Assembly (NCBI GenBank): GCA_035292685.1
Contig: DATDPP010000079.1
Coordinates: forward strand, 170,971-234,970
Length of the DNA: 64,000 nucleotides
Reading direction: 5' to 3'
Source: Acidimicrobiia bacterium
Lineage (GTDB): Bacteria; Actinomycetota; Acidimicrobiia; Spongiisociales; ZC4RG35
Within the stretch, counting starts at the first letter, position 1. Every line of letters starts with the position of its first letter. The notes below the pieces were generated by a model. That model was not told the origin of the DNA, did no database searches, and saw nothing but the letters and a program-made list of their open reading frames with translations. Below are positions 1 to 58,551 of this stretch, in pieces. The position numbers and the translations under genes were made by a program.

Positions 1-7
1 AGCCGCC

Positions 8-1474
8 ATGGCCCTGGTCGCCGGATCGATGGTCCTGCTGTTGGGCATGGCCGCCTTCGGAACCGACCTCGCCTGGTTCTATCTCAACGCGAGCCGGGTC
101 CAGCGCGCCGCCGATGCCGCGGCGCTCGGGGGTGTGGTGTGGATGCCAGGCAACCTGGGCACCGCCACCGGCACCGCCTTCGACATCGCACTGCGCAATG
201 GGTACGACGACGCGGACGCCGACGTCACAGTGACCCCGATCGACATTCCGGGCGCCCCCAACGAGTTGGAGGTCACCGTACGCGACATCGTCCCGACCTT
301 CTTCGCCCAGATCTTTGGCTTCGACACCATGGCCATCTCCCGCACCGCCCGGGCCGAGTACATCCCACCCTTGAAGCTGGGGAGCCCGACCAACAAGTTC
401 GGCAATGATCCCAGCTGTTACATATCCAACCCTGATTGCGCCGGGAACTTCTGGGCCAACATGCATGGGCGTAACACCGACACCCGAATGGGTGACGCCT
501 ACGCCTCCTTCTGTGCCGACGGGGGCGGTTCCACCAACGTTTGCGGAGCCAACCCCTCCTACCGGAGCACCGGCTATCTCTATGGCGTGATCCCCAACGG
601 GAACAGCTTCACCCTCCAGGTGCTGGACATGAACTTCCGCAACGAGTCGGGTGGAGTTGCCAATGGTGACCCCTGGCGCACCGGTGACCACAACAATTTC
701 TGCGGCGGTGGGGGTTGTGTAGGCCCAACCGTGACGGTGCGGGTCTACCTCCCCGACCCGACCCCGCTCGACCTCTCGGACAACACTCTTGTATGCGAGG
801 AGGTCTACGGCCCCCAGGCTCAAATCAACCCGGATAGCGACCCACCTTTCAACGGGGCCGGGGCCAACTGGAACTGGGACACAACTTGCAATGCCGGCAT
901 CAACACCAGCGCCAGCCCCAACGGGATCTGGGTGGTCCAGGTTGTCAACACCACGGCCACCAATGTCAATACCAGCGGGCTCAACCGCTACTCGATCCGA
1001 ACCAGCACCGGGAACCTGTTCGGGCTCGGCGACTTCTCCCTCTTCAACAACTCGACGGCAAGTACTTCAAACTTCTATCTGGCTGAAGTCCCCGACTTTT
1101 ACGCCGGGAAGACCTTTGTCGTCGAGCTCTACGACCCCGGTGACGTCGCCGGCGGAGCCAACGGCCAGATCCAACTGCGGACACCCTCCGGCAGCGTCCA
1201 AGCAAGCTGCGAGATGTTTGTCAGAAACGAGGTCACCGATCCTTGGGTCTCGAGAGGGATTCTGAGCCCCTGTCAGTTCAACGTTCAGAACAACGGTGGT
1301 GTCAACGACTACAACGGTGACTGGGTCAAACTGGAGTCCGTTCTCCCCGGACCCGGCTCCTACACCGGTGGGTGGTGGCGGATCACCTACAACTTCTCCG
1401 GTGGGGTCTCCGACACCACCACTTGGCGTGCCTACATGGTCGGCAACCCCATTCACCTGGTGCCTGTCCCCTAG
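8..1474 (+). CDS. TadG-like large protein, paralog 1. N-terminal TM helix plus a Flp pilus-assembly TadE/G-like (Tad) domain, then a Cys-rich C-terminal domain. Possibly 5'-partial: the reading frame is open to the window edge and the paralogs carry about 20 more N-terminal residues.
   Basis: N-terminus MVLLLGMAAFGTDLAWFYLNASRVQRAADAAALGGVV matches the TadE/G-like signature. It is paralogous to the ORFs at 2136..3635 and 6277..7686, sharing motifs including FYLAEV..AGK..EL(Y/F)DPGD and C-terminal TTWRAYMVGNPIHLVP. Confidence 0.6.
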   Translation: MALVAGSMVLLLGMAAFGTDLAWFYLNASRVQRAADAAALGGVVWMPGNLGTATGTAFDIALRNGYDDADADVTVTPIDIPGAPNELEVTVRDIVPTFFAQIFGFDTMAISRTARAEYIPPLKLGSPTNKFGNDPSCYISNPDCAGNFWANMHGRNTDTRMGDAYASFCADGGGSTNVCGANPSYRSTGYLYGVIPNGNSFTLQVLDMNFRNESGGVANGDPWRTGDHNNFCGGGGCVGPTVTVRVYLPDPTPLDLSDNTLVCEEVYGPQAQINPDSDPPFNGAGANWNWDTTCNAGINTSASPNGIWVVQVVNTTATNVNTSGLNRYSIRTSTGNLFGLGDFSLFNNSTASTSNFYLAEVPDFYAGKTFVVELYDPGDVAGGANGQIQLRTPSGSVQASCEMFVRNEVTDPWVSRGILSPCQFNVQNNGGVNDYNGDWVKLESVLPGPGSYTGGWWRITYNFSGGVSDTTTWRAYMVGNPIHLVPVP

Positions 1475-1513
1475 CGGCTTCGCATTGTCCGGCGGGCGTT
1501 TTCCTTCAAGAAA

Positions 1514-1557
1514 TCTGGCGAATCTGCCGACATTGACTCGGAGTCATTCGCCAGATG
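1514..1557 (+). promoter_or_regulatory. Nested hairpin in the TadG1-TadE1 intergenic region. A 10-bp stem TCTGGCGAAT/ATTCGCCAGA encloses an inner GACTCgGAGTC palindrome. The right arm overlaps the ATG of the downstream TadE-like gene at 1555.
   Basis: Inverted repeat read directly from the sequence at 1514-1523 and 1546-1555, with the inner palindrome at 1535-1545. Confidence 0.45.
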
Positions 1558-2139
1558 AAGCCCATCACATTCCAATCCCCAGCCAGTAGAAGCGGCACCG
1601 CCCGTCAGCGTGGGGCCGCCCTCATCGAGGCCGCCATCGTCTTCCCGATCTTGATCCTGATCATCATGGGGATCCTGGAGATCGGCCTCGCTTTCAAGGA
1701 CTACCTCACCGTTTCCTACATTTCACGTGAGGCAGCCCGGGTGGGTGCCCTGGCTGGAGACGACGCGGATGCCGATTGCGCCATCCTCGAGGGAATCGGC
1801 ACGGTGGCCACCGCAGGCGACCTGGCTCGCATCACATCGATACAGATCTTCAAGGCCGACATCAACGGAACTCAAGGCGTGACGAACTACGCCGTGTTCG
1901 ACGGGGGAGACCCGAGTCTTTGCAATGTCCCCGCCCAACCATCCGACACATGGACCATCAACCCGATTGGCTGGGTCGCCACCTCCCGTCAGACGGCAGT
2001 CGGCGACGACGCACTCGACATCATCGGGGTCAGAATCATTATGACCCATGACTGGGTCACCAACTTTGCGCCGTTCCGAGGCTCGATCACCATTGACGAG
2101 TCCACTATCACCCGTCTCGAGCCAAAGGTCTTCGAATGA
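1555..2139 (+). CDS. TadE-like pseudopilin (Flp-pilus minor pilin-like), subtype A.
   Basis: Prepilin-type leader with G^AALIE (Glu at +5) followed by a hydrophobic helix IVFPILILIIMGILEIGLAF. Its C-terminus (RLEPKVFE) resembles the ORF at 5735..6280. The stop overlaps the next start (ATGA at 2136-2139). Confidence 0.65.
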   Translation: MKPITFQSPASRSGTARQRGAALIEAAIVFPILILIIMGILEIGLAFKDYLTVSYISREAARVGALAGDDADADCAILEGIGTVATAGDLARITSIQIFKADINGTQGVTNYAVFDGGDPSLCNVPAQPSDTWTINPIGWVATSRQTAVGDDALDIIGVRIIMTHDWVTNFAPFRGSITIDESTITRLEPKVFE

Positions 2140-3635
2140 AATATGCGATTCTGGAACGATTCACCCGACGCACCGATGGCGAGGATCGGGGCATGGCGCT
2201 GCCGCTCGTCGCCTGCATGATCGTCGTTCTGCTCGGCGTGTCCGCCTTCGCCGTCGATCTGGGATGGCTTTATCTCAACGGGGCTCGCCTCCAGCGCGGG
2301 GCCGACTCATCGGCTCTGGCCGGTGTGGTCTTCCTTCCCGGGGACACCGACGGTGTGGACGACAACACACTGGGCGCTGCCAACGCCAATGGCTATGACA
2401 TCGGGGACATCAACGGCACCCCGGTGGTTGGAGGGGGGCCCGACGATCTCGACTGGCGCCAACTCGCGGACAACAAGCTCGAAGTGACCCTGGCTACCCA
2501 GATCCCGACCTTCTTCGTGAAGCTGTTCGGATTCGACTCGTTCGACATAACCAGGGTGGCCACCGCCGAGTACGTGAAACCGGTTCCGATCGGCAGCCCC
2601 GATCCCTGTTTCGGAGTCGGCATCACCAGTATTCAGAGCGGTGACTGCAACCCGGCCACCGCCCAACGATTCTGGGCAGCCGTCTCGGGCCCCTATACCA
2701 ACAAGTGGAACGGTGACGCCCACTCGACGCTGTACTGGGACGACGACGGCACCTGGAACCAGGAGTCGACCAACACCGAGTACCGCTCCGACGGCTACTA
2801 CCTGGCGATAGACGTCCCATCCGGTGTGTCCGGCCTCACAGTCCGCGTCTACGACGCCGGCTTCTACAACCGTGCCAGCTTCGACACCGAGACCGGCGAT
2901 CGCACCCAGGACACCGGTGGCGGGGCCGACACCCATTTCCAGATGTACCTCTTCGACGACACCCCGCTCGACCCCACCAACAACACACCGATCAGCGGAT
3001 GTTCGACTGGGAGCGGCACCTTCAACATCGCCGCCGAGGCCTCGTCGGGCACCTACAAGAACAGATGGGTCACGCTCTGTACCCTGTCAGGCGCTGTTGC
3101 CCCCGGGATCTATGTGGTCCGGGTCTGGACAGACGGCAATGACGGTGGCACCAACCAGTTTGCGGTTCGAGCCAACACCTCCAGCGCGGCAAACGCACGG
3201 GTTTACGGGATCAACGACATCTCGATCTTCACCAACCAGTCGGGCCTCACGACATTGCACGTTGCCGAAGTCGCCCAAGTGCATGCGGGCAAGACCCTCG
3301 AACTCCAGTTCTACGACCCTGGCGAGGACGACCAGGACGCCTTCATGACGGTCAAGAACCCCAGCGGAAGCACCGCCACCTGCGATTGGGTGGCCAAGAA
3401 CGAGGCAGGCACGGTGGTCGACTCCGGTTCAGGGAGTTGCAGCCTCCAGACATCGGACGGCAATGCCTTGTTCAACGGGCTTTGGGTGACCGCCCAGGTT
3501 GACATTCCCGACAGTTACACCTGCACCACCAACTGCTGGTGGAAGATGGAGATCGACAACTCCCAGCCCCATGACCGCACCACCTGGGCGGCGCGGATCA
3601 TCGGCAACCCCGTCCGATTGGTTCCCAACGAATGA
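2136..3635 (+). CDS. TadG-like large protein, paralog 2.
   Basis: AFAVDLGWLYLNGARLQRGADSSALAGVV TadE/G-like N-domain. Shared C-domain motifs WVTLCTL, RVYGINDISIF, HAGKTLELQFYDPGE, CWWKMEID and TTWAARIIGNPVRLVP. Confidence 0.6.
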   Translation: MKYAILERFTRRTDGEDRGMALPLVACMIVVLLGVSAFAVDLGWLYLNGARLQRGADSSALAGVVFLPGDTDGVDDNTLGAANANGYDIGDINGTPVVGGGPDDLDWRQLADNKLEVTLATQIPTFFVKLFGFDSFDITRVATAEYVKPVPIGSPDPCFGVGITSIQSGDCNPATAQRFWAAVSGPYTNKWNGDAHSTLYWDDDGTWNQESTNTEYRSDGYYLAIDVPSGVSGLTVRVYDAGFYNRASFDTETGDRTQDTGGGADTHFQMYLFDDTPLDPTNNTPISGCSTGSGTFNIAAEASSGTYKNRWVTLCTLSGAVAPGIYVVRVWTDGNDGGTNQFAVRANTSSAANARVYGINDISIFTNQSGLTTLHVAEVAQVHAGKTLELQFYDPGEDDQDAFMTVKNPSGSTATCDWVAKNEAGTVVDSGSGSCSLQTSDGNALFNGLWVTAQVDIPDSYTCTTNCWWKMEIDNSQPHDRTTWAARIIGNPVRLVPNE

Positions 3636-4204
3636 GCGCCGGCCGCCGACCTTGTCGAAACGGAAACGAGAAGGGCGCCACCCTGATCGAGTTTTCCCTC
3701 ATCTTCGCCTTCTTGATGATGATCGCCCTTGGCGCCTACGAGTACGGAATGGCCTTCCGTGACTGGCTCTCGGTGACAGTTGCCACCCGGGAAGGCGGCC
3801 GGGTCGCGGCATCAGCGGCCAACTTCGGCGAGGCCGACTGCGTGATCCTCGAAGCTGCCACCGGTGCCCTCCAGTCGTTGCAAACCGGTGAGGTCGAATT
3901 CGTTCACATCTACAAGTCCGACATCAATGGTTCCTACCCAGGGTCCAACAGCTTCACGCGGATCTATCGGCCCTCGACTCCGGCCGACCTCGACCTGGTC
4001 GTGTGTGATGGCTCGACCTGGTTTGCCACCAACCTCGGCAGCAACTGGGACCCGGACGACAGGGTGAACGCCACGGGGGCAGCGGACTGGATCGGGGTTC
4101 GGGTCGAGTTCGAGCACCAATGGCAGACCAATTTCCTGTGGTGGAACGGATCGGTCGACTGGGACGATGACGCGGTGTTCCGGATGGAGCCACCGGCGCC
4201 ATAG
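3632..4204 (+). CDS. TadE-like pseudopilin, subtype B.
   Basis: Leader KG^ATLIEFSLIFAFLMMIALGAYEYG (Glu +5). C-terminal FLWWNGSVDWDDDAVFRMEP matches the ORF at 7683..8213. ATGA overlap with the upstream gene. Confidence 0.65.
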   Translation: MSAGRRPCRNGNEKGATLIEFSLIFAFLMMIALGAYEYGMAFRDWLSVTVATREGGRVAASAANFGEADCVILEAATGALQSLQTGEVEFVHIYKSDINGSYPGSNSFTRIYRPSTPADLDLVVCDGSTWFATNLGSNWDPDDRVNATGAADWIGVRVEFEHQWQTNFLWWNGSVDWDDDAVFRMEPPAP

Positions 4205-4248
4205 ACCGGGATCGGTCTCCTTCCGCCAGGCTCCCTAGCCTGTAGCAA

Positions 4249-5100
4249 ATGCTTTCTCCTCCTGAATACATGCCCGCGTTGATCACGCCTTTCACCCGAA
4301 GTGGTGAGGTCGATACCAGGGCCCACACCCACAACCTACGGGTCCTCGCCGAAAAGGGAATCGAGGGTTTCGTGATCGGCGGTTCCAACGGTGAGGGCCC
4401 CTATCTCGAGCCCGGCGAGCGCAGCAGCCTGGTCAAGACCGGTCGGCGTCGCAAAGCCCATTTCATGGTGGGGATCGCGGCCGAGTCGACAAGGGTGGCT
4501 GTTCGCCAGATACAGGAAGCAGCCGACGCGGTGGCCGACAGCGTGCTGGTGATGACCCCCACCACCCTGGCTCGGGGGCGCGACGAGGCGATTCTCCGCT
4601 TCTATCGGACCATCGCCGACATGTCACCGCTGCCTGTGTTCATCTACTCGGTGCCGAGTGTCACCAGCTACAACCTGCCCATCGAGCTGGTGTGGCGTCT
4701 CTCCCGGCATGACAACGTCATCGGGATGAAGGACTCCAGTGGTGACGTGGTGCGACTTCAAGCCATCATCGACGCCACCCCACCCGGCTTCCTCCTCTAC
4801 TCGGGGTCGTCACAAGCGTTGACTGCGGCCATGGCCGTGGGCTGTCATGGCGCGATCACCGGATCCGGGAACTATGTGCCTGCCCTCGTGCTGCAGACGC
4901 TGGAGGCAGCCAGGCAAAGCCCGGAGATGGCCCGAAGGCTGCAGAAACGACTCAGCTCGGTGAGCGCCGAAGTCGATGCCCACGGGATCCCGGGGGTGAA
5001 GGCGGCGGCCAAGGCAGCCGGTCTCGATCCCGGGTATCCGCGCGAACCCCTGACCCGGCTCTCCCGGGGCGCGGAAACCTCCATCGCCAAGCTGATCTGA
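4249..5100 (+). CDS. Dihydrodipicolinate synthase (DapA/NAL) family protein.
   Basis: MPALITPFTRSGEVD...GFVIGGSNGEGPYL...IGMKDSSGD (Schiff-base Lys context) is typical of the DapA family. The start could instead be the internal Met at 4270. Confidence 0.7.
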   Translation: MLSPPEYMPALITPFTRSGEVDTRAHTHNLRVLAEKGIEGFVIGGSNGEGPYLEPGERSSLVKTGRRRKAHFMVGIAAESTRVAVRQIQEAADAVADSVLVMTPTTLARGRDEAILRFYRTIADMSPLPVFIYSVPSVTSYNLPIELVWRLSRHDNVIGMKDSSGDVVRLQAIIDATPPGFLLYSGSSQALTAAMAVGCHGAITGSGNYVPALVLQTLEAARQSPEMARRLQKRLSSVSAEVDAHGIPGVKAAAKAAGLDPGYPREPLTRLSRGAETSIAKLI

Positions 5101-5117
5101 CCCAACCCGCGTTCCTA

Positions 5118-5151
5118 ATGCATCGCGTCACGCATCCGTGACGCGATGCAT
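5118..5151. terminator. Perfect 15-bp inverted repeat ATGCATCGCGTCACG / CGTGACGCGATGCAT with a 4-nt loop, downstream of the DapA-like gene. Read as a rho-independent-type hairpin with no U-tract, or alternatively a palindromic operator.
   Basis: Read directly from the sequence. Confidence 0.5.
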
Positions 5152-5234
5152 CCAGTACAGCCGCGATGCAGGCGAGCGTGCTCTGCACGGCTAGTACCAT
5201 CTGCCGTTCTACCGATCATCAAGGAGAGAACGCC

Positions 5235-5618
5235 TTGTCCAAGTTTCTCAGCGAAGAGTGGACCGCGGAGGTGACCACCGCCCTCGACCAGCACCCGGGT
5301 TTCCGGAACGCCATCGGATCCGCCGACCTCAGCATCCAGTTCGTCGTCAGCGACACCCCCGACGGCGAGGCCGGGTACTACCTGAGGTCCAGCGGTGGCA
5401 TTCCCACCTTGGCGATCGGGACTCTCGAGGGCGCCGATGTCACGGTCAGACAGAGTTATGACACCGCGACCGCAATCTCCAAGGGCGAGTTGAACACCCA
5501 GACCGCATTCATGACCGGCAAGGTCAAGGTCTCAGGGAACCTCGCCAAGCTGATGATGCACCAGTCGGCAATCCAGCAATGGAATGCGGCAACAGCCGAC
5601 CTCGAAATCGACTACTGA
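5235..5618 (+). CDS. SCP2 sterol-carrier-like domain protein.
   Basis: SKFLSEEWTAEVTTALDQHPGFRNAIGSADLSIQFVV...TAFMTGKVKVSGNLAKLMMH is typical of SCP-2. A probable TTG start at 5235 is assumed; the tracked ORF begins at 5166. Confidence 0.6.
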   Translation: MSKFLSEEWTAEVTTALDQHPGFRNAIGSADLSIQFVVSDTPDGEAGYYLRSSGGIPTLAIGTLEGADVTVRQSYDTATAISKGELNTQTAFMTGKVKVSGNLAKLMMHQSAIQQWNAATADLEIDY

Positions 5619-5734
5619 TCACCGACTAGTCATTTCACGTAAATAACAGGGGGACTCTGGTTACCGACCTCCGTGGGTCGGATAATGTTGCGACGCTGAA
5701 GCAGGCGCGCCGCCGTGTCACGTCAGGGGCTGAA

Positions 5735-6280
5735 ATGGGCAAGGGAGAAAAGAACCGGGGTGCGACCATGGTCGAGGCCGCCATGATCTTCCCTTTGATG
5801 ATCTTGCTCACGGTGAGCATCCTCGAACTGGGGATGGCGTTCAAGGACTTCCTCACTGTCTCCTTCACTGCCCGCGACGCAGCGCGCGTCGGGTCGCTCG
5901 CCGGGAACGACCCGGAGGCGGATTGCGACATCATCCAGAGTGTGGTCGCCGCCTTCGGCCCAACCGATCTCGCCGGAGTGGACATCCTCATCTTCAAGGC
6001 CAACGAAGCGACGGGGAACCCGGTCGTGGGCCAGGTCAACACCTGGACATTGAGGCCCTCGGGTGACCCCACCACCTGTCTTCCCCTCGATTGGTCGATC
6101 ACCGAGAATTGGCCGAGCACGACCCGTCAGGTGAATGTCGGCCCCACTACCAAGCTGGACATACTCGGTGTGACCATCGAGACCACCCACCAGTGGATCA
6201 CCGGTCTGCCGCCTTGGCGGGGAACCATCAACGTGGATAGGACTGCCTTGCAAAGGATCGAGCCGGAGGCCTTCGAATGA
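5735..6280 (+). CDS. TadE-like pseudopilin, subtype A.
   Basis: Leader NRG^ATMVEAAMIFPLMILL. High similarity to the ORF at 1555..2139 (AFKD(Y/F)LTVS, ADC, IFKA, HQWITG, C-terminal RIEPEAFE). Stop overlaps the next start (ATGA at 6277-6280). Confidence 0.65.
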   Translation: MGKGEKNRGATMVEAAMIFPLMILLTVSILELGMAFKDFLTVSFTARDAARVGSLAGNDPEADCDIIQSVVAAFGPTDLAGVDILIFKANEATGNPVVGQVNTWTLRPSGDPTTCLPLDWSITENWPSTTRQVNVGPTTKLDILGVTIETTHQWITGLPPWRGTINVDRTALQRIEPEAFE

Positions 6281-7686
6281 AACGACACCGGCGGGAAGAG
6301 GGCATCGCCTTGGTCTGGCTGGCTATCACCCTCGTCCTCTTGATCGGGATGGCCGGGTTTGGCGTCGACCTCGGGTGGATCTATCTCAACACCAGTCGAG
6401 CCCAGAAGGCAGTCGATTCCGCCGCCCTAGCCGGGGTCGTCAATCTCCCGGGATTCATCGCCCAGGCAGAAATCGACGCCGAGGACGCCACCCAGGCCAA
6501 TGGCTTCGACCCGGACGGTCTGACCGTCACCCCACTGGCCGACAACAAGCTGCACGCAGAGTTGCGTATCCAGGTCGAGCCCTTCTTCCTCAGTGTGCTC
6601 GGTTTCGACCATTTCAACATCACCAGGGAGGCCACCGCCGAGTACATCAAACCGGTGCCCTTGGGGAATCCAAACAACTGTTTTGGCTGCCCGGGTGTCG
6701 GCGACTCCTGGGCGGCCATCTCCTCCCAGTTCATCCACAAAGAGCACGGGGATCCCTATTCCACCCAATGCCGGGTGCCGTCGAGCCCTTCATCCTGCTC
6801 GTCGGGCAACAGTGACTACAACCGCGGCGGCGCCTATGCCGGGTACTACTACGGGATCGAGGTCTTTGGCACGTCGCAAGATCTGACCGTCGAACTCTTC
6901 GATCCCAGGTTCAATCGACGCCCTCAGGACGAGGGAACGGGCGATTTCGCCTTCAGCGGCAGCCCAGGCCCAATCACCACCTACTCGCTGCACATGGTGG
7001 ACATAACCCCGCTCAACCCCATCGACAACCCGGCGATTCCTGGATGCTCCATGACTCTCGATCCCGACACCACACCCACATTCCAGGACCAATGGGTCAC
7101 GCTTTGCACTCTTGGCGGGTCTCTCACTCCAGGAATCTATGTCCTCCATGTCACCAACACCGGCACCGGGATTGCCAGCAACCACTATTCGGTGCAGGCC
7201 AACGTCGCAAGCGGCACCACCCCCCGGGTCTACGGCATCAACGACATGTCGATCTGGTCGAATGATCTGGTCCAGAACAGCCAGCTCTACATCGCCGAGA
7301 TCGAGGCGATCCATGCCGGGAAGAAACTCGAGCTTCAGTTCTACGACCCCGGCGATGCCAACGCCAACTCCTTCATGACCCTGCTCTCACCCAACGGGCC
7401 CGTCAACTGCAGCTGGACGGTCTGGAACCACAACCTCACCGCCCAGAGCCAGCCTCCCGGCTCCGGCGCCTGCACCTGGCAGACCACCAACACGTCGCGG
7501 CCTGGGGATCGACGGGTCTACAACGAGCAATGGATCGTGGCAACGATCGATCTCCCGGACGATCCCGCCGACATGTGCAACGGCTCCGACTGTTTCTGGA
7601 AGATGGAGCTCGACTTGAGCGACCCCACCGAGCGCACCACCTGGCGGGCCCGGGTCATCGGCAACCCGGTGCGTCTGATTCCATGA
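6277..7686 (+). CDS. TadG-like large protein, paralog 3.
   Basis: GFGVDLGWIYLNTSRAQKAVDSAALAGVV N-domain. C-domain motifs WVTLCTL, RVYGINDMSIW, HAGKKLELQFYDPGD, CFWKMELD and TTWRARVIGNPVRLIP. Confidence 0.6.
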   Translation: MKRHRREEGIALVWLAITLVLLIGMAGFGVDLGWIYLNTSRAQKAVDSAALAGVVNLPGFIAQAEIDAEDATQANGFDPDGLTVTPLADNKLHAELRIQVEPFFLSVLGFDHFNITREATAEYIKPVPLGNPNNCFGCPGVGDSWAAISSQFIHKEHGDPYSTQCRVPSSPSSCSSGNSDYNRGGAYAGYYYGIEVFGTSQDLTVELFDPRFNRRPQDEGTGDFAFSGSPGPITTYSLHMVDITPLNPIDNPAIPGCSMTLDPDTTPTFQDQWVTLCTLGGSLTPGIYVLHVTNTGTGIASNHYSVQANVASGTTPRVYGINDMSIWSNDLVQNSQLYIAEIEAIHAGKKLELQFYDPGDANANSFMTLLSPNGPVNCSWTVWNHNLTAQSQPPGSGACTWQTTNTSRPGDRRVYNEQWIVATIDLPDDPADMCNGSDCFWKMELDLSDPTERTTWRARVIGNPVRLIP

Positions 7687-8213
7687 ACAGGGATCGGGGC
7701 ACCGCAGCGATCGAATTCGCCTTTGCCATCATGGTCCTGCTGCTGCTGGCCATCGGCGCTTACGAATGGGGAACCGGGTTCTCCGACCGGATATCGATGT
7801 CATCTGCGGTGAGGGAAGGGGGGCGGGTAGGAAGCGCGGCTGGGGACAATCCCGATGCCGATTGTCGGATCATCGAAGCCTCCGCCGGAGCGCTCAACGG
7901 GGTCTCGGGGAACTCGGTCAAACAGCTTTGGGTCTACGAATCAGACTCCGGTGGGACCGTGGGTCTCAACCGCCAGATCTATCGACCCGCTCAAGCCGCC
8001 GAGCCGGGGCTGACCTGCACCGGCGGAAGGTGGTTCTTGGTGGCCAACGGGTGGCCCTATAGCGTCCGGGAGAATCTGAGTGCGAACCGGGACTGGCTCG
8101 GGGTCAAGGTGATCGTCGATCACGAGTGGAGAACCGGGTTTCTCTGGTGGAACGGCACAGTGGAATGGGAGGAGGACGCCGTCTTCCATCTCGAACCCGG
8201 GGTCGTCAGCTAA
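7683..8213 (+). CDS. TadE-like pseudopilin, subtype B.
   Basis: Leader DRG^TAAIEFAFAIMVLLLLAIGAYEWG. C-terminal FLWWNGTVEWEEDAVFHLEP. ATGA overlap with the upstream gene. Confidence 0.65.
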   Translation: MNRDRGTAAIEFAFAIMVLLLLAIGAYEWGTGFSDRISMSSAVREGGRVGSAAGDNPDADCRIIEASAGALNGVSGNSVKQLWVYESDSGGTVGLNRQIYRPAQAAEPGLTCTGGRWFLVANGWPYSVRENLSANRDWLGVKVIVDHEWRTGFLWWNGTVEWEEDAVFHLEPGVVS

Positions 8214-8222
8214 CCGGAGAGC

Positions 8223-9212
8223 TCAGATCAATCCCAGCGCTCTCACCGCCTCCCTCTCCTCGACCAGCTCGGCGACCGAGGCATCGATCCTGACCGTGGA
8301 GTAGTCGTCGATATGGAGGCCCTGGACGATCTCCCAGGAGCCCTCCCGACACACACACGGGAACGATGAGATCAACCCTTCGGGGACACCGTACTCACCG
8401 TCAGACCGCACCCCCATCGAGACCCAGTCTCCATCAGGCGTTCCCGAGACCCAGTCCCGCACATGGGAGATGGCGGCGTTGGCCGCCGAGCCGGCCGACG
8501 ACGCCCCCCGGGCGGCGATGACGGCCGCTCCCCGGCCCGCCACGGTCGGGATGAAGACGTCGTTGACCCAGTCGTGGTCGGCAACCAACTCGTATGCCTG
8601 CTTCCCGTCGACCTCACAATGAAAGAGATCCGGGTACTGGGTCGATGAGTGGTTGCCCCAGATCGTCATCCTCCTCACCGAGGTGACCGGTCTGCCGGTG
8701 CGCAGCGCAAGTTGGCTGATCGCCCGGTTGTGGTCCAAACGGGTCATCGCGGTGAAGCTACGGGGATCGACCCCCTGGGCGTTGTTCATTGCGATCAGGG
8801 CATTGGTGTTCGCCGGGTTCCCCACCACCAAGACCTTCACGTCGGGGCTGGCCGTGGCGGCCAGGGCCCGCCCCTGGACAGTGAAAATGGCGCCATTGGC
8901 CGTGAGCAGGTCTGAGCGCTCCATCCCGGCCTTGCGCGGCATGGCTCCCGCCAGGAGCGCAATGTCGACGCCATCGAAGGCCGATTCGGCATCGTCGGTC
9001 ATCACCAATCCGGCGAGAAGTGGGAAGGCGCCGTCCTCCAACTCCATTGCTACCCCTTCGAGGGCTGGCATGGCAGGAGTGATCTCCAGCATTTGAAGGA
9101 TGACCGGTTGTTCCCGGCCCAGCATCTCCCCGGCGGCGATCCTGAAAAGCAGGCTGTAGCCGATCTGGCCGGCGGCGCCGGTGACCGCAACCCGCACTGG
9201 CTGGTCATTCAT
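8223..9212 (-). CDS. mdh: Malate dehydrogenase (LDH-like cytosolic MDH family).
   Basis: [24 protein letters not shown]...[13 protein letters not shown]...TRLDHNRA are canonical MDH motifs. Confidence 0.9.
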
Positions 9213-9238: not shown

Positions 9239-10078
9239 TCAGGTCATGAAATCGAGTGCGATGTCCATTTGAGGGGCAGAGTGGGTGATCCAGCCCACTG
9301 AGATGATGTCGACACCGGTCGATGCAATCGACCGAACGTTGTCCAACGTCACCCCGCCGGATGCCTCGGTGATCAGGCGCCCGGCGGTCATTTCGACTGC
9401 CGACCGCAGGGTCTCCAGGTCCATGTTGTCGAGCAGCACCCGATCGGCCTTGGTTTTCAGAACTGCTTCGAGCTGCACCAGGGTCTCCACCTCGACCTCG
9501 ACGGTGATGCCTGGGCCAACCCGCTCCCGGGCCGCGTTCACGGCGCGCTCGATGTCCCCGATGGCAGCGATGTGGTTGTCCTTGATCAGCACCGCATCGA
9601 ACAGCCCCACCCGATGATTGACCCCTCCCCCAATCAACACCGCGTACTTGTCAAGGAGACGCATCCCCGGCATGGTCTTTCGGGTGTCCGAGATGCGGGC
9701 ACCGGTCCCCTCAACCGCTGATACGAACAAGGTAGTCGCCGTGGCCACACCCGACATCCGTCCCAGGATGTTGAGGGCGGTGCGCTCGGCACGGAGCAGC
9801 GATCTGGCCAATCCCCCCACGGTGGCGATGGCTTGCCCGGGGGAAACCCGATCACCATCTGTCACCAAGGCGGCAAATGCCGAGGCCGGGTCGATTGACT
9901 CGAATACATAAGCGCCGACCTCGAGCCCGGCGACGACACCGTCGGAGCGGGCGACGACCCCAGCTCTCGCCTGCGTCTCCTCGGGGACGCACGCGTCGCT
10001 GGTCAGGTCTCCGGCTGAGCCCAGGTCCTCGGCGAGAGCTCGCCCTACCAGGTCTGTGTAGGCGGACCGATCGATCAC
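9239..10078 (-). CDS. nadC: Nicotinate-nucleotide pyrophosphorylase (quinolinate phosphoribosyltransferase).
   Basis: Full-length similarity to the NadC family (LLDKYAVLIGGGVNHRVGLFDAVLIKDNH). Overlaps nadB by 4 bp. Confidence 0.88.
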   Translation of the reverse strand: MIDRSAYTDLVGRALAEDLGSAGDLTSDACVPEETQARAGVVARSDGVVAGLEVGAYVFESIDPASAFAALVTDGDRVSPGQAIATVGGLARSLLRAERTALNILGRMSGVATATTLFVSAVEGTGARISDTRKTMPGMRLLDKYAVLIGGGVNHRVGLFDAVLIKDNHIAAIGDIERAVNAARERVGPGITVEVEVETLVQLEAVLKTKADRVLLDNMDLETLRSAVEMTAGRLITEASGGVTLDNVRSIASTGVDIISVGWITHSAPQMDIALDFMT

Positions 10079-11589
10079 GTCACCGCCACCAGGTCTGCCC
10101 GGGTAGGGTCGATCAGAGTCCGGTGCTCTTGCATCGGGTCGGGCTCCGGGTAGTCGGCGCGGTAGTGGCCGCCCCGTGACTCGCTTCTCCGAAGTGCCGC
10201 CAGAACCACCATCAGCGAGAGGTCGGCGGCCACCCGCCCCGCGATCGTCCGGCGAAGGACGTTGTCGAGCTCAAGCAGGTGATTGCGGGCTTCCCAGAGC
10301 CCGGCGCCGGTCCGAACCAAACCGACCCGATCCCACATGACCTGGCGCAGCTCCTCGAGCGCCGGCCCGGCGACCAGAGGCAGGTCGAATGCTTCTTTCG
10401 GCGCCATCGGCTCACCGTCGGGCTCGACCAGGTTGCGCCCGACGTCGGAGGAGGCTCGGGCGCCAAAGACCAGGCCCTCGAGAAGAGAGTTGGAGGCGAG
10501 CCGGTTGGCGCCGTGAACACCGCTCGAGCTGCACTCCCCCACCGCCCACAGGCCTTCGATCGATGTGCGGCCGTTGGAGTCGGTGTCGATGCCCCCCATG
10601 TAGTAGTGGGCCGCCGGTGACACCGGGAGCAGGTCTTCGCCGGGGTCGAGGCCCACAGAATGGGCATGGGCGTTCACCGTCGGGAAGCGTTCGGGGAAGT
10701 TGACGAGGGACCGGGCGTCGAGATAGGCGCCCATCCCCTTGTCGTATTGCCAGAAGATGGCCCTGGCGACGATGTCACGGGGCGCCAATTCGGCCATCGG
10801 GTGGTACTGATCCATGAACCTCCGGCCGTGGGCGTCGACCAGGATGGCGCCCTCGCCCCTGAGCGCCTCCGTCAGCAGCGGCATCGGATCCTTGCCGGCG
10901 AGGAGCGCCGTCGGGTGGAACTGGACGAATTCGAGGTCGGCCAACCGGGTGCCGACCCGCCCCGCCATTGCGATGCCGTCGCCGGTGACACCCGGGGGGT
11001 TGGTGGTGCGTGAGTAAAGACGGCCGGCCCCGCCGGTCGCCATCACCACCGCGGGTGCCAGCACCACATCGCGTTGCTTGCCATCAGCAGTGACCGCTCC
11101 GATCACGCGGCCGTCGGCCATCACCAGGTCGACCACCCTTCGCTCGATGATCTGGATCCGGTCCGAGGCCTGCGCCGCAGCGGTGAGGGCGCGCATGATC
11201 TCGGCACCAGTGGCGTCGCCGTCGGCGTGGACGACTCTTCTCCTCTGGTGCCCACCTTCCCGTCCGAGGGACAGGCCACCGTCGTCATCGCGGTCGAACT
11301 CGGCGCCGAGCGCGATGAGGTTGTCGATGGCGGCCGGTCCTCCCTTGGTCAGGACATCGACGACATTTCTCACCGCCAGGCCGCCGGAGACATTGAACGT
11401 GTCGTCGGCGTGAAGCTGGGGCGAGTCCTCATCGGAGAGTGCGGCTGCGATCCCTCCCTGGGCCCACCAGGTGGAGCCCATCTCGGGCGCCGACATCAGA
11501 TAGGCACGGGGGAGCCCGAGGGCGACGGTGAGCCCGGCGACGCCGGCACCCACGATCAGTGGGGCGTCGAGGCGGGTGATATCCGTCAT
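10075..11589 (-). CDS. nadB: L-aspartate oxidase.
   Basis: FAD-binding N-terminus IVGAGVAGL plus QGGIAAAL and the FVQFHPTAL motif. Confidence 0.9.
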   Translation of the reverse strand: MTDITRLDAPLIVGAGVAGLTVALGLPRAYLMSAPEMGSTWWAQGGIAAALSDEDSPQLHADDTFNVSGGLAVRNVVDVLTKGGPAAIDNLIALGAEFDRDDDGGLSLGREGGHQRRRVVHADGDATGAEIMRALTAAAQASDRIQIIERRVVDLVMADGRVIGAVTADGKQRDVVLAPAVVMATGGAGRLYSRTTNPPGVTGDGIAMAGRVGTRLADLEFVQFHPTALLAGKDPMPLLTEALRGEGAILVDAHGRRFMDQYHPMAELAPRDIVARAIFWQYDKGMGAYLDARSLVNFPERFPTVNAHAHSVGLDPGEDLLPVSPAAHYYMGGIDTDSNGRTSIEGLWAVGECSSSGVHGANRLASNSLLEGLVFGARASSDVGRNLVEPDGEPMAPKEAFDLPLVAGPALEELRQVMWDRVGLVRTGAGLWEARNHLLELDNVLRRTIAGRVAADLSLMVVLAALRRSESRGGHYRADYPEPDPMQEHRTLIDPTRADLVAVT

Positions 11590-11598
11590 CGGATGGTC

Positions 11599-12567
11599 CT
11601 AGTCCTGACGGCCGACTTCGAGCATACGGGTAACTGCCCTGCGGGCTCGCCCGGCAATTTCCGGATCGATCTCGATCTGGTGGGTGAGTGTGGCGAGCGA
11701 GTCCCTGATGTTGTGGAGCGTTATCCGCTTCATGTGGGGGCAGAGATTGCAGGGGCGGATGTATTCGGTGTCTGGTGTCGCGCCGGCGACGTTGTCCGCC
11801 ATCGAGCACTCCGTGATCATCATCACCCGGTCCGGATGGTTGGTGGTGACCCATTGGATCATCCCGTGTGTCGATCCGACGTAGTCGGCCTCTGCCAGGA
11901 CGTCGGGTGGGCACTCGGGATGGGCGATGACCTTGAGCCCCTCGACACCCCGACGGTAGTCCGAAATCTCCTCGCCGGTGAAGCGCTCATGGACGATGCA
12001 TGACCCTTCCCAGAGGACGACCTCGACGTCGGTCTGGCTGGCGACCCACATCCCCAGGTACTTGTCCGGTGTGAAGATCACCTTGTCCACCCCCAGCGAC
12101 TCGACCACGGCGACCGCGTTGCTGGAGGTGCAGGTGATGTCCGACTCGGCCTTGACCTCGGCCGAGGTGTTGACGTAGGTGACCACCGGAACCCCCGGGT
12201 GCTGCTCTTTGAGGGCCCGCACATCGGAACCGGTGATGCCGTCAGCCAGTGAGCATCCCGCCCTGAGGTCGGGGATGAGCACCATCTTCTCCGGGTTGAT
12301 GATCTTGGCCGTCTCCGCCATGAAATGGACCCCGGCGAGGACGATTACTTCGGCTTCGGTCTCGAGTGCGGTCTGGGCCAGCGCCAGCGAGTCACCTTTG
12401 ATGTCGGCCGCGAGGTGATAGATGTCCGGCGTCATGTAGTTGTGGGCGGCGACGATGGCGTTGCGCTCCTTCTTCCACCAGTTGATCTCGTCGATCAAAG
12501 GCTGGAGCGCGACGACCTCCGCCTCGGGGAGGACATCCGTGGCCCGGGTGATTGCGATCGGTGTCAT
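11599..12567 (-). CDS. nadA: Quinolinate synthase A.
   Basis: NadA family throughout (AHNYMTPDIY, VHFMAETAKI, CSMADN, CPHMKRITL). Confidence 0.9.
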   Translation of the reverse strand: MTPIAITRATDVLPEAEVVALQPLIDEINWWKKERNAIVAAHNYMTPDIYHLAADIKGDSLALAQTALETEAEVIVLAGVHFMAETAKIINPEKMVLIPDLRAGCSLADGITGSDVRALKEQHPGVPVVTYVNTSAEVKAESDITCTSSNAVAVVESLGVDKVIFTPDKYLGMWVASQTDVEVVLWEGSCIVHERFTGEEISDYRRGVEGLKVIAHPECPPDVLAEADYVGSTHGMIQWVTTNHPDRVMMITECSMADNVAGATPDTEYIRPCNLCPHMKRITLHNIRDSLATLTHQIEIDPEIAGRARRAVTRMLEVGRQD

Positions 12568-17786: not shown

Positions 17787-19418
17787 ATGACTTCGGTTAT
17801 CGCCCTCGTCATCCCCCTGGCCATCCTCGCCGGCATCGGTTTCCTCATCTGGAAACTGTGGAAACGTCGCCCTGATCAGCCGGATCACGAGGGGATCGAC
17901 CTCCTCCCCTATCTCATCCTGGCCATCGCGGTCGGGGTCGCCGCCTTCTCGCTGGCCCGCCTGGCCCGAGCCGGTCTCGCCGGGGATCGCCTGGCGGGCG
18001 ACAACACCAACGAGATCGCGGCGGCTCTCGCCGGGTTGGTGGTGGCGGCACCGGTCTCGTTCTTCCTGTGGCGTCGTCAGGCGCAGCGCCGAAAGCTCCA
18101 CCCCCGGCTGCCGGGCTGGCCGGTGTACCTGGCAGCGATCGAGGTCGTGTTCCTCACCGCCTTCTTCAACAGTGTGAATCAGGTGGCTCGAGCCATCTCG
18201 GACGATGTTGAGCTCAATCCGTGGACCAACCTCGTCGTGTATGGCGGCGTGGTCGCCTTTCATTGGTGGGCTGCGTTTCGCGAGCCGCCAAGCGGGGACG
18301 CCTCCGAACTGCCCCGACTCGTCGGTTCCGGGGTGGCGCTGATCGCCCTTGCCATCGGGCTCAACGGCGTCCTGACGTGGTTGCTCGAGCAGGGGTACCA
18401 AACGGTCTCCGAGGGAAGCCCGGTGCAGCCCCTCGACGACATCGCCTTTGCAACCAGCCTCGCCCTCCTCATCACCGGCGCCCCGATCTGGGCCTGGCGC
18501 TGGCTGCCGGCCTGGGATGAGGAGCCGACCGTCCTCCGCTCGTTGTACCTGGCGGGGTTCTCGGTCCTGTCCCTCACCGCCTCCCTCGGTGCCGGGATAA
18601 CCATCGTCGCGATGGTGCTCGGTTACGCGATCACCTCCACGGTTGACGCGGCACTGCACTTCGAGTCACTGCCCACCGCCATCTCCTTGCTTCTCGTGGC
18701 ATTCGGCATCTGGATTCATCACCGACGACGGATGGGCGAGAGCCGGAACCGGGGGGTCATCGGGTACGGCTACTCGATGACGGCCATCGGCCTGGGGACC
18801 CTGGTCGGAGCAGGAACGGGTCTGGTGACCCTGGTCTGGAATACCCCTCTGGCCGGAGACCCGACCCGACAGGGCTTGATCGGCCTTGGCCTGGCCGTGC
18901 TCGTCGCCGGGGCGGTCTGGTACTACTTCTGGCGCCAGGCTCAAAGACACCGACTCGAAGAGCTGCGATCGATACAGCGACGGGTCTACCTGATCGGAAT
19001 GGCCTTCATCCTCGGCCTGACCGCGGCTGGTGCCTTGATCGCAGTCCTGATCGTCGCCTTCCAGACCCTGCTCGGTGAGGGCGAGCAATCGACATCCTCA
19101 CTGCCCACATCGGTCAGCCTCACCGTGTTGGCGGGACTCGCGACCTGGCATCTGTTCACTGTTCTCCGCGCCGACGGGCCCCGCGAGGTGACACCAACAG
19201 GCGCTTCATTTGCGGTGACCGTCATCTGCTCGCATCCCGGCCCCCTGGCGACGATGTTTCCCAAGGAGGCCCGCCTGCGTGTTCTCTATCGGACAGACAG
19301 GGTAGGCATGGTCGACGAGGCCATGGCGGAACAGATCGTGGCCGCGGTGGGTGGAGAGCCGGCATATGTCTGGGTCGATCAGGACGGGTTCCGTACCGCT
19401 CCGGTCCGCCGCGACTGA
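17787..19418 (+). CDS. Polytopic integral membrane protein of unknown function with an internal duplication.
   Basis: Roughly 10 predicted TM helices. The motif (F/Y)(L/F)WR(R)QAQR(R/H)(K/R)L occurs twice (near residue 95 and near residue 385). Confidence 0.45.
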   Translation: MTSVIALVIPLAILAGIGFLIWKLWKRRPDQPDHEGIDLLPYLILAIAVGVAAFSLARLARAGLAGDRLAGDNTNEIAAALAGLVVAAPVSFFLWRRQAQRRKLHPRLPGWPVYLAAIEVVFLTAFFNSVNQVARAISDDVELNPWTNLVVYGGVVAFHWWAAFREPPSGDASELPRLVGSGVALIALAIGLNGVLTWLLEQGYQTVSEGSPVQPLDDIAFATSLALLITGAPIWAWRWLPAWDEEPTVLRSLYLAGFSVLSLTASLGAGITIVAMVLGYAITSTVDAALHFESLPTAISLLLVAFGIWIHHRRRMGESRNRGVIGYGYSMTAIGLGTLVGAGTGLVTLVWNTPLAGDPTRQGLIGLGLAVLVAGAVWYYFWRQAQRHRLEELRSIQRRVYLIGMAFILGLTAAGALIAVLIVAFQTLLGEGEQSTSSLPTSVSLTVLAGLATWHLFTVLRADGPREVTPTGASFAVTVICSHPGPLATMFPKEARLRVLYRTDRVGMVDEAMAEQIVAAVGGEPAYVWVDQDGFRTAPVRRD

Positions 19419-22412: not shown

Positions 22413-22493
22413 AAACCGAGAGGCGCGCAATGACACACGCCGATGGCGGTTGGGCGAGGGCAGAGTCGGCCGGCAAGAAGTAGCTTCCGGCAC

Positions 22494-23579
22494 ATGGCCG
22501 AGGAAAACCTCTACTACGGCGATTACCTCCAACTCGACAAGCTCCTTTCCGCCCAACAGTTGGAAAGCGAGCGGGCCGGGAAGCCGATTCACGACGAGAT
22601 GCTGTTCGTCATCGTCCACCAGGCCTACGAGTTGTGGTTCAAGCAGATCCTCTGGGAGATCGACGATCTCCTCGCCATCTTCGGCAGGGATCTCGTCGAC
22701 GAGCAGGACATGGGCACCGCGGTGGGCAGGCTCCGGCGCATCCTGGCGATCCAATCGCTGCTGATCCAACAGGTAGCGGTCCTGGAGACGATGACACCCC
22801 TCGACTTCCTCGATTTCAGAGATCACTTGTTCCCCGCCTCCGGCTTCCAATCCACCCAGTTCCGGATCATGGAGAACAAGCTGGGCATGCGCCGGGAGGA
22901 CAGACTTCTATTGGCAGGAGCCCCGTACACGGCCAGGTTCACTCCTGAAGACAGGGTGATGGTGGAATCGTTCGAAGGTGGGTCGTCGCTGTTCGATGTC
23001 GTCGAGCAATGGCTGGAACGAACACCATTCCTGGAAAGCGGGGGGTTCCAATTCCGTGAGGCCTTTCAGGAGGCGGTACGCGCCAGGCTGGAGGCCGACC
23101 GTGAGGTGGTGGCCACCAACCCCAATCTCACCCCGGGTGAGAGGGACGCGCAACTCAAGGATTTCTCCCTGACGATGGAGCAGTACGAGGCTCTTTTCGA
23201 CGAACAGAAACACGCCGAGCAGCAGAAGGCAGGAACTCGACGTATCAGCCACCGTGCGTTTCAGGCGGCCCTATTCATCAACCTCTATCGGGATCAGCCC
23301 GCCCTGCACGAGCCCTACCAGATCCTGGAGCTGCTGATGGACATGGACGAGGGATTCACCGCCTGGCGGCATCGCCACGCCCAGATGGCCCTGCGGATGA
23401 TCGGGCGTCGCATCGGCACCGGCGGATCGGCTGGGGCCAGATACCTGGAGAAGGCTGCGGAGCGGGGCCGGGTCTTCGGAGACCTCTTCGACCTCTCGAC
23501 CTTTCTCATCCCCCGAGACAGCCGGCCGCTGCTTCCCCGGGACATCGTGGAGGCGATGAGATTCCGGTATCAGGGATGA
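22494..23579 (+). CDS. kynA: Tryptophan 2,3-dioxygenase.
   Basis: YYGDYLQLDKLL...HDEMLFVIVHQAYELWFKQ is the TDO signature. The ATG at 22494 is preferred over the ORF start at 22443. Confidence 0.85.
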   Translation: MAEENLYYGDYLQLDKLLSAQQLESERAGKPIHDEMLFVIVHQAYELWFKQILWEIDDLLAIFGRDLVDEQDMGTAVGRLRRILAIQSLLIQQVAVLETMTPLDFLDFRDHLFPASGFQSTQFRIMENKLGMRREDRLLLAGAPYTARFTPEDRVMVESFEGGSSLFDVVEQWLERTPFLESGGFQFREAFQEAVRARLEADREVVATNPNLTPGERDAQLKDFSLTMEQYEALFDEQKHAEQQKAGTRRISHRAFQAALFINLYRDQPALHEPYQILELLMDMDEGFTAWRHRHAQMALRMIGRRIGTGGSAGARYLEKAAERGRVFGDLFDLSTFLIPRDSRPLLPRDIVEAMRFRYQG

Positions 23580-24709
23580 ACCTGAAGCCGGGTTTCTCAC
23601 GCTTCCTGGGGGCAGCCCCGGATCGTCTTCATTTCGCAGCACATTCCCATCACCCGTGGCCGGATGTGTCCTTCGAGGCACAGCAACGGGCCTGGCTCGA
23701 CGCCGCCGATCTGATGGATGACAAGTGGGAGCACATCTTGGGGACCGTGATCCCCGACACTCAGCGAAGGATCGCGTCCAAGCTCGGGCTCTCCGACCCG
23801 GCCACGCTGACCTTCGCCCCCAACACCCACGACTTCCTAACCCGTCTCTTCTCCTGTCTCGAGCCACCGGTCCGCGTGTTGGCCACCGATGCCGAGTTTC
23901 ACTCGTTCAACCGCCAGTCGCGGAGATGGGAGGAGGGGGGTCTAGCCATCGTGGACCGGATCCCGGCCGAGCCGTTCGATACCTTTGCCGAGCGTTTCAC
24001 GCGAGAGGCTCGGGCCGGTGTACACGACCTGGTGTATTTGAGCCAGGTGTTCTTCGACTCGGCGTTCGTGGTACCGGAGCTGGATCGCGTGATCTCCTCG
24101 GTGCCCGAGGATCGTGCCTTCGTGGTCATCGACGGGTACCACGGCTTCATGGCCCGACCCACCAACCTCGGCGCTATCCAGGACAGGGTCTTCTTTCTCG
24201 CCGGCGGCTACAAGTACGCCATGGCGGGTGAGGGTGTCTGTTTCCTCCACTCACCCCCCGGATATGGGCCTCGACCCGCTGACACCGGCTGGTACGCCGG
24301 TTTCGGCCAGCTGGAGACCGGGGTCAGTGGTCAGGTCTATTACGCCGAGGATGGCTCTAGGTTTGCCGGCGCCACCTACGACCCGTCCGGCATCTATCGG
24401 ATGCGGGCGGTGCTGACCTGGCTGGAGGAGTCCGGGGTGACCGTGGCTGACATCCGGGCCCATGTCGTACACCTTCAGAGCCGGTTGCTGGCGACTGCGA
24501 GCCTCCCCGGCGATTTGATTCCACCGTCCCCGCATGAGCGCGGCAACTTCCTCACCTTCAGGTCAGAGGGTGCTGGTGACATCTACCGGGCCCTCCACGA
24601 GCGGGGAGTGGTCACCGACTATCGGGACGATCGGCTTCGCATCGGCTTTGGCATCTATCACGACGAGGATGACGTCGACCGGTTGGCGGCGGCGCTGGCT
24701 GGGCTATAG
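23576..24709 (+). CDS. kynU: Kynureninase.
   Basis: Kynureninase family similarity (PLP fold, VVIDGYHG...AGGYKY). ATGA overlap with kynA. Confidence 0.82.
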   Translation: MNLKPGFSRFLGAAPDRLHFAAHSHHPWPDVSFEAQQRAWLDAADLMDDKWEHILGTVIPDTQRRIASKLGLSDPATLTFAPNTHDFLTRLFSCLEPPVRVLATDAEFHSFNRQSRRWEEGGLAIVDRIPAEPFDTFAERFTREARAGVHDLVYLSQVFFDSAFVVPELDRVISSVPEDRAFVVIDGYHGFMARPTNLGAIQDRVFFLAGGYKYAMAGEGVCFLHSPPGYGPRPADTGWYAGFGQLETGVSGQVYYAEDGSRFAGATYDPSGIYRMRAVLTWLEESGVTVADIRAHVVHLQSRLLATASLPGDLIPPSPHERGNFLTFRSEGAGDIYRALHERGVVTDYRDDRLRIGFGIYHDEDDVDRLAAALAGL

Positions 24710-45781: not shown

Positions 45782-45955
45782 CCTCAGTATCTATCGGGGA
45801 GTTTCGACTCCGGCTGTAGTTAGAGGTTCAACGTTGGAGCACTCCCCACGAGGTGATCCGGGCGATGCGTCTTTGACTGCGCCGGCCGGCAACACCGAGA
45901 ATGGCGCATCAGCACGGATTTCAACGAGCGTTACCGTGTCATCGAGCACCCGGCG

Positions 45956-58525: not shown

Positions 58526-58551
58526 AGGAGCCGGGCCCGAGAGACTGAGGC

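Follow-up and report, generated by a model that had tools for sequence, protein, structure and literature searches.

The question raised by this locus is what kind of protein is encoded by three large, related open reading frames whose N-terminal ends resemble the pilus protein TadG and whose C-terminal regions carry no domain assignment. The three plus-strand frames, designated here paralogs A, B and C, lie in the first 8.2 kb of the window, i.e. the whole 64,000 nt stretch that was analyzed (Acidimicrobiia bacterium, GenBank assembly GCA_035292685.1, contig DATDPP010000079.1, positions 170,971–234,970). All three very probably represent TadG-type minor pilins that carry an unclassified all-beta insert. 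The fuller mechanistic reading, in which they sit at the apex of a type IVc (Tad) pilus as minor pilins of the TadG/CpaL type, is given a rough probability of 0.6.

BLASTP comparison of the C-terminal regions alone shows 31% amino acid (aa) identity between A and B (E-value = 1.4e-36), 27% between A and C (E-value = 5.8e-28) and 39% between B and C (E-value = 1.6e-74), a similarity far above chance. The original prediction, which proposed a region of ~350 aa common to the three TadG-like proteins, is borne out, as the alignment runs from end to end with pairwise E-values of 1e-28 to 1e-74. The conserved blocks it listed are all found in B and C, but in A only in part. Paralog A retains FW, GDAYAS, AE...AGK...ELYDPGD and TTW.A...GNP.HLVP and is degenerate at WVTLCTL, RVYGIND and CWWKME. 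The reported richness in N, T, S and G is also seen, these four residues making up 34–40% of the region. The interval given for the domain, 400–7686, spans four TadE-like genes, a DHDPS-family gene and an SCP2 gene as well, which are not part of the domain.

The N-terminal part of each protein matches the Tad family PF13400, with scores of 25.6 (A), 36.1 (B) and 41.7 bits (C) against a cut-off of 22.3, and the same match is found in all 62 homologues that were scanned individually. This match and a weak one to PF09977 (Tad_C) are confined to the first ~145 aa of A, B and C. The leader consensus of the 62 homologues is (D/E)(D/E)(K/R)G↓(A/V)(A/S)LP(F/L)(V/I)A, where the arrow denotes the end of the leader. 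The Gly is present in 61 of them and is followed by a hydrophobic stretch; position +5 is F, L or W in 57, and Glu is not among the five commonest residues there. In related filaments, Glu5 is typically missing from the apical subunit (GspK/PilX family). Each large protein shows one hydrophobic segment, and the topology, a single N-terminal hydrophobic helix behind a charged leader, agrees with the extracytoplasmic location previously suggested for the C-terminal region. In B the leader occupies aa 1–19, with the invariant Gly at its end, and the pilin-like head aa 20–146; in C the leader is MKRHRREEG and the head aa 10–123. For full-length B, AlphaFold2 gave from 62 sequences a model with a predicted local distance difference test score (pLDDT) of 86.9 and a predicted template modeling score (pTM) of 0.72. 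It shows a long helix at 21–64, a short helix and a four-strand sheet at 89–146 (predicted strands 89–92, 103–111, 114–124 and 135–146; pLDDT 85–94). The head as predicted has a pilin-like fold, i.e. a long alpha-1 helix on a small beta-sheet.

After residue 146 the B model consists of ~19 strands and just two 4-residue helices. When the C-terminal region (aa 147–499) is modeled in isolation, on 21 sequences, pLDDT is 85.8 and pTM 0.86, which suggests a compact unit of fixed shape. No Pfam family was found over the remaining ~350 aa of A, B and C in searches with the whole proteins, the 62 homologues and six half-domains to an E-value of 10; there were chance matches only (Urotensin_II on CFWKME, and MOFRL). 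NCBIfam gave nothing relevant to the module, and the PDB sequences, searched with profiles of 3 and 21 sequences, gave nothing past one chance match (E-value = 0.16). The earlier statement that the region fits no known domain therefore stands. A literature search found no description of the module in Acidimicrobiia.

With a meaningful superposition taken as a template modeling score (TM) of ~0.5 or more, Foldseek showed no meaningful neighbor for either model in the PDB or for the module model in BFVD (TM ≤0.24). The PDB matches (E-values ~1e-4, TM ≤0.21, root-mean-square deviation 15–25 Å) are to generic tandem beta-sandwich or jelly-roll proteins, e.g. peptidylglycine hydroxylating monooxygenase, birnavirus VP2, STIV and PRD1 capsids, a CBM22 tandem and a PNGase F-like protein. 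The BFVD result is equally uninformative. A vWA (von Willebrand factor A) domain, already set aside in the first reading of the sequence, is rejected: the model is all-beta apart from the two 4-residue helices, there is no conserved MIDAS motif (D.[ST].[ST], for metal ion-dependent adhesion site), and there is no vWA Pfam match. The sole DxSxS-like match is a chance DTTPT in paralog C.

Two further candidates were tried. The PPC family (PF04151) is found in 3 of the 62 homologues with a best E-value of 0.039 and is absent from the window proteins and their halves to an E-value of 10. Generic two-sandwich proteins, PPC included, share with the module an all-beta, apparently two-sandwich organization, and the module has a strand-YD-x-G motif that recalls PPC-type sandwiches. 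However, the structural (TM ≤0.24) and sequence (PPC E-value ≥0.039) similarities are low and the two halves of the module are not demonstrably related. When the N-terminal half was compared with the C-terminal half, hhalign aligned only a 16-residue motif (PsG..l.V.iYDaG / HAGK.LeL.fYDPG) with a probability of 2%; thus an internal duplication is unsupported.

The module family is large. A word-indexed search with B gave 366 relatives, of which PF13400 is the only precomputed domain; the named ones are annotated as "pilus assembly protein TadG-related" and come from Acidimicrobiia metagenome-assembled genomes (MAGs). An exhaustive search with a profile of the C-terminal region gave 1,971 representatives at 50% identity with an E-value of 1e-3 or better, and 1,340 with 1e-10 or better. 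Architecture was read in the best 150 of the 1,971. Nearly all full-length matches among these have an N-terminal part of 110–160 aa and then the module up to the C-terminus, and some are 600–730 residues long with an extra insert. The suggestion that the module may be specific to this lineage is revised in that the family, with ~1,970 clusters, is broad. A motif-seeded scan of GTDB representative genomes, which favors close relatives, found 77 loci, almost all of them labeled as Acidimicrobiia (among others Acidimicrobiaceae, Iamia/Iamiaceae, Microthrixaceae); a few are in MAGs with other submitter labels.

The boundaries of the module are indicated by a protein in which it is found outside a pilin. 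P0135, a 1,557 aa protein of GCA_038252265.1 (locus L005, 214–4887), has a signal peptide, then three modules in tandem with Pro/Thr-rich linkers between them, and an SLH domain. This makes the module an autonomous extracellular domain. Each copy covers the profile from position 6 to 328–339 of 351 and extends no further than the "...DRT.W" strand. The final ~12 positions, A[RK][VI]IGNPVRLVPN, are missing in all three copies, which places the terminal tail in the pilin context rather than in the module. The nearest full-length relatives of the P0135 copies are ordinary PF13400 proteins of 500–560 aa with 55–59% identity over most of the module, so the SLH form looks like a rare derivative.

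Nowhere in the protein is conservation higher than in the tail, where T482, T483, W484, A486, G490, P492 and L495 (B numbering) are invariant in 62 sequences. Residues 493–496 of B form a strand in the full-length model but are coil in the isolated module, and pLDDT over ~491–499 is ~80 in the former against ~43–69 in the latter. Thus the last of the originally listed blocks, IGNPVRLVPN, probably lies outside the module, being absent from P0135 and a strand only in the full-length model. From both alignments and models, the ~350 aa "domain" probably divides into a module of ~340 aa and a near-invariant terminal strand. By analogy with Caulobacter CpaL, this strand probably completes the pilin sheet.

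The Cys residues do not define the module. There are 10 in A, 9 in B and 10 in C, inside the range of 7–12 first reported, but the sets vary by paralog. Conserved columns (B numbering) are 158/171, 289/315, 416/435 and 463/467, and many homologues, including A and C, have an extra pair at ~200/209. One of the nine Cys of B sits in the N-terminal hydrophobic (membrane) helix, and the count in the exported part of each paralog is even. Even numbers, together with the export implied by the sequence, make disulfides plausible. Positions 289/315 and 416/435 are not Cys in the aligned P0135 copies, which argues that the Cys are stabilizers and not a signature of the fold. Among 250 homologues the Cys positions are conserved, but the pairing signal is confounded by lineage effects, with C-terminal Cys gained and lost together.

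The closest known system is CpaL, the TadG orthologue of Caulobacter crescentus, which consists of a leader, a pilin-like module at 27–147, a vWA domain with an embedded beta-rich region and a C-terminal strand (PMC12607857, PMC13533445). The ~470-residue middle part sits atop the pilus tip (PMC12607857, PMC13533445). The extreme C-terminal strand joins the N-terminal pilin sheet in cis and is needed for fiber assembly, and a construct without the ~470-residue middle region has been examined (PMC13533445). CpaL and the TadG of Aggregatibacter actinomycetemcomitans resemble A, B and C in the Gly leader, the hydrophobic helix, the large insert and the short conserved C-terminal strand, and they adjoin two small genes of the TadE/F (CpaJ/K) type. 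The head of CpaL ends at ~147 and that of paralog B at 146. The inserts are different: that of CpaL is a vWA domain with its embedded beta-rich region, whereas that of A, B and C is all-beta with no MIDAS and no Rossmann fold. A, B and C also differ in being three paralogous copies, none of which is beside a tad machinery locus.

In Myxococcus xanthus there are four alternative KilLMN Tip complexes, whose gene sets lie away from the machinery (PMC12075869). As with the A, B and C sets, there are several paralogous sets of two small pilins and one large pilin scattered in the genome, the large subunit KilN carries a C-terminal module without a PDB homologue, and alternative tips for one Tad-like pilus have been proposed (PMC12075869). 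Two long helices and a beta-scaffold are described for the KilN module, in contrast to the purely beta module of A, B and C. The host here also differs, being a monoderm-lineage actinobacterium (Acidimicrobiia) that is not known to be a predator. GspK and PilX (PilK family, type II secretion system/type IVa pilus) share with A, B and C the missing Glu5 and a large insertion within the pilin fold, and they have the apical position and the sheet-completing terminal strand that are proposed for A, B and C (PMC13533445). The GspK insert, however, is an alpha-domain of ~180 residues with no sequence relationship to the module and no match in the PDB sequence or fold searches. A pilin head with a tip-exposed binding module is also found in a monoderm, in PilB (vWA) and PilC (lectin) of Streptococcus sanguinis (cited in PMC12075869 and PMC12607857). 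These belong to the type IVa class, have other module folds and are not among the Foldseek PDB matches. By analogy with CpaL/TadG and KilN, the tip location first suggested for the module is plausible (PMC12607857, PMC13533445, PMC12075869).

Each large gene is accompanied by two TadE-like genes (PF07811), one from each of two subtypes, and all six of these encode a G↓xxxxE leader: the "upstream" subtype ends in ...LEPxxFE and the "downstream" subtype has FLWWNG(S/T)V(D/E)W. Each set thus resembles a TadE/TadF/TadG (CpaJ/K/L, KilL/M/N) trimer.

In the fuller reading, prepilin peptidase would cleave the short charged leader after the invariant Gly, ahead of the hydrophobic alpha-1 helix without Glu at +5 that is seen in the sequence. 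The helix and the small four-strand sheet would form a pilin-like head, after which the ~340-residue all-beta module, predicted to have a fixed compact shape, would be inserted. The module is probably stabilized by 4–5 disulfides and many invariant Asp/Asn residues, both in putative roles. As it takes the position of the vWA adhesin of proteobacterial TadG/CpaL, it would by analogy stand atop the pilus tip and provide contact specificity. The near-invariant IGNPVRLVPN would fold back as a beta-strand onto the pilin head, in a "beta-strand addition" in cis like the one that in CpaL licenses assembly of the tip complex. The locus would then encode three alternative trimeric tip/priming complexes, to be loaded onto a single pilus machine whose genes lie elsewhere in the genome.

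One point weighs against this. Genes for a Tad ATPase, a platform protein, a prepilin peptidase or an Flp pilin were found neither in the 64-kb window nor within 10 kb of four related loci, so the association with a pilus depends on homology of the N-terminus and of the neighboring genes. The ligand, tip location, leader cleavage, disulfides and strand-to-sheet contact are inferred. The missing machinery would suit membrane-anchored or cell-wall surface proteins, in which the TadG-like N-terminus is a signal-anchor and which act in adhesion, matrix binding or envelope organization without a filament, and the three module copies with an SLH domain in P0135 do place the module in a non-pilin surface context. 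This is nevertheless considered unlikely. Minor-pilin sets are typically marked by features seen here, namely an invariant Gly in the leader, a helix of the pilin type and a strict association with two TadE-like genes that encode G↓xxxxE leaders; the P0135 modules are nearest to ordinary PF13400 proteins, so that the SLH form looks like a rare derivative; and minor-pilin sets distant from the machinery are known in Myxococcus (PMC12075869).

Another alternative bears on the relations among the three sets. The module could be a ligand-free, bulky rigid cap that primes or licenses assembly and blocks full retraction, the paralogs being redundant. It fits this that the terminal strand is the part of CpaL needed for assembly of the Caulobacter fiber (PMC13533445), and that between paralogs the heads (47–49% identity) and tails (50–83%) are better conserved than the modules (28–41%). 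However, orthologues of A, B and C are each recognizable in a diverged genome (locus L001), and triads are kept in other genomes. Identity between orthologues is 77–81% in the pilin heads, against 46–53% between paralogs; in the modules it is 47% for A, 78% for B and 70% for C, against 27–42% between paralogs. The value for A is lowered by what looks like a frameshift in L001. Thus the triplication is old with all three types retained, which argues for distinct roles. Distinct selected functions fit the maintained types better than redundancy, and the module is reused in an SLH surface protein without any pilin part. A mere cap is accordingly regarded as improbable. In L001 the A and C orthologues (7617–9167 and 17933–19297) are split across frames; the probable cause is a frameshift from assembly rather than a genuine pseudogene, and it explains the aberrant C-terminus of the 503 aa call.

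A pilus-borne enzyme (e.g. a hydrolase of glycans or peptides, or a metal-dependent oxidase) in place of a binding domain is very unlikely: there are invariant or near-invariant polar residues (D194, D240, D255, D274, N283, N340, N367, E378, H383, K386, D394) and weak Foldseek neighbors that are enzymes (peptidylglycine alpha-hydroxylating monooxygenase, PNGase F-like protein, beta-galactosidase), but the enzyme matches show TM ≤0.21 and ≤14% identity, no enzyme family is matched by sequence, and clusters of invariant Asp/Asn in beta-sandwiches are more often calcium sites. Copper-monooxygenase-like chemistry in particular is rejected, as there is one near-invariant His, too few for the monooxygenase's copper sites.

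A wider interpretation of the TadG-like minor pilins is suggested by one related locus (L083, 1981–17368 of contig_20138, 1.06 Mb), where seven large TadG-like and nine TadE-like genes occupy the slot between sdhAB and DHDPS-SCP2-mdh. Three of the large genes carry the module. The other four have an unrelated Cys-rich C-terminal region (profile hidden Markov model (HMM) E-value >0.1), and these regions finish in other strand-like tails (VRVELTR, YRVELYR). This array resembles a reserve of alternative pilus tips that can expand. It is a tentative and rather doubtful extension that the slot from sdhAB to DHDPS-SCP2-mdh-nad, conserved in Acidimicrobiia, is an expandable arsenal of exchangeable Tad tips, with the module a new two-sandwich fold that sets attachment or uptake and is autonomous enough to have entered an S-layer-anchored protein in three copies. 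If so, the arsenal would span three sets here and seven large genes with at least two unrelated module families in L083, and the new fold would set the targets to which abundant actinobacteria of soil, sludge and the sea attach or which they take up.

To our knowledge, vWA is the only adhesin module characterized so far on TadG-type proteins, and work on the Tad pilus tip is recent (CpaL in Caulobacter and KilLMN in Myxococcus, 2025–2026). The family described here is large and uncurated (~2,000 clusters at 50% identity), belongs mostly to uncultured, poorly studied Acidimicrobiia, and has a different all-beta module in the vWA position, which is a candidate determinant of attachment specificity. 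The clean boundary between module and terminal strand is usable for a new family model. The sequences also provide separate grounds for arguing that the "terminal strand addition" architecture reaches actinobacterial Tad systems. No general principle is changed by the finding.

Table 1. Coordinates in the window of the large TadG-like and small TadE-like genes and of the segments of the large proteins
Feature	Position (nt)	Strand	Evidence
Paralog A, TadG-like large minor pilin	1..1474 (N-terminus cut by window edge)	+	PF13400 and Tad_C
Paralog A, predicted all-beta module, most divergent of the three	362..1435	+	alignment; C-region HMM E 1e-87 (profile 1–350)
Paralog A, C-terminal tail MVGNPIHLVPVP, putative pilin-completing strand	1436..1471	+	alignment; column conservation
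TadE-like small minor pilin, "upstream" subtype, partner of B	1555..2139	+	PF07811 E 1.4e-12; alignment of six TadE-like sequences
Paralog B, TadG-like large minor pilin, 499 aa	2136..3635	+	PF13400 E 8e-9; AlphaFold2 model; leader logo
Paralog B, predicted all-beta module, aa 147–489, ~19 strands	2574..3602	+	C-region model; no family match
Paralog B, C-terminal tail GNPVRLVPNE, near-invariant in family	3603..3632	+	column logo; model comparison
TadE-like small minor pilin, "downstream" subtype (FLWWNGSVDW), partner of B	3632..4204	+	PF07811 E 3e-8; alignment
TadE-like small minor pilin, "upstream" subtype, partner of C	5735..6280	+	PF07811 E 3e-10; alignment
Paralog C, TadG-like large minor pilin, 469 aa	6277..7686	+	PF13400 E 1.4e-10; alignment
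Paralog C, predicted all-beta module	6646..7653	+	C-region HMM E 1e-120; BLASTP to B E 1.6e-74
Paralog C, C-terminal tail (VIGNPVRLIP)	7654..7683	+	alignment; logo
TadE-like small minor pilin, "downstream" subtype (FLWWNGTVEW), partner of C	7683..8213	+	PF07811 E 1.3e-8; alignment

As deposited, paralog A begins with the ATG at window position 8 and has 488 aa. On a 311-kb metagenomic contig of the same genome (L002) the frame extends upstream to an in-frame GTG, 48 nt before the ATG, at window position −40 (L002 7825–7873), which shares bases with the stop codon of the TadE gene before it (GTGA). From this GTG, paralog A would have 504 aa and the leader MRRLLREKSGSDRG↓AAMALVAG, with a charged ...SDRG↓ leader regained as in B and C. 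On this sequence evidence the GTG is most likely the true start and the 488 aa call too short, in which case the window removes the first 16 residues of A. Both TadE-like genes of set A lie upstream of the window and were read on the L002 contig. The leader of the upstream TadE-like partner of B ends ...QRG↓AALIE. The start of the downstream TadE-like partner of C is taken from the gene call on the L002 contig, and the DHDPS-family and SCP2 genes lie between the B set and the C set.

The remainder of the window consists of housekeeping genes. nadC, nadB and nadA, of the aspartate route to NAD, are at 9239–12567 on the minus strand. About 10 kb from them, at 22443–24709 on the plus strand, are a tryptophan 2,3-dioxygenase gene and a kynureninase-like gene of the kynurenine route; judged from the sequence, both de novo routes to NAD may be present. 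A hybrid kinase resembling CheA, with Hpt, HATPase_c, CheW and receiver domains, is encoded beside a HisKA/HATPase_c histidine kinase at 44876–48732 on the minus strand, and no flagellar or pilus genes were seen among the window open reading frames scanned. At 58000–64000 the AT skew jumps to +0.18 to +0.20, which is attributed to the hydrophobic codon usage of three minus-strand PF00361 genes (nuoL/M/N-like) found there. A DUF222 plus HNH endonuclease gene is at 40872–41942 on the plus strand; in the genomes of actinobacteria this family is often mobile and present in repeated copies. The gene at 53337–54392 on the minus strand is unusual in that it fuses a molybdopterin-binding oxidoreductase domain (PF00174) to C-terminal pentapeptide repeats.

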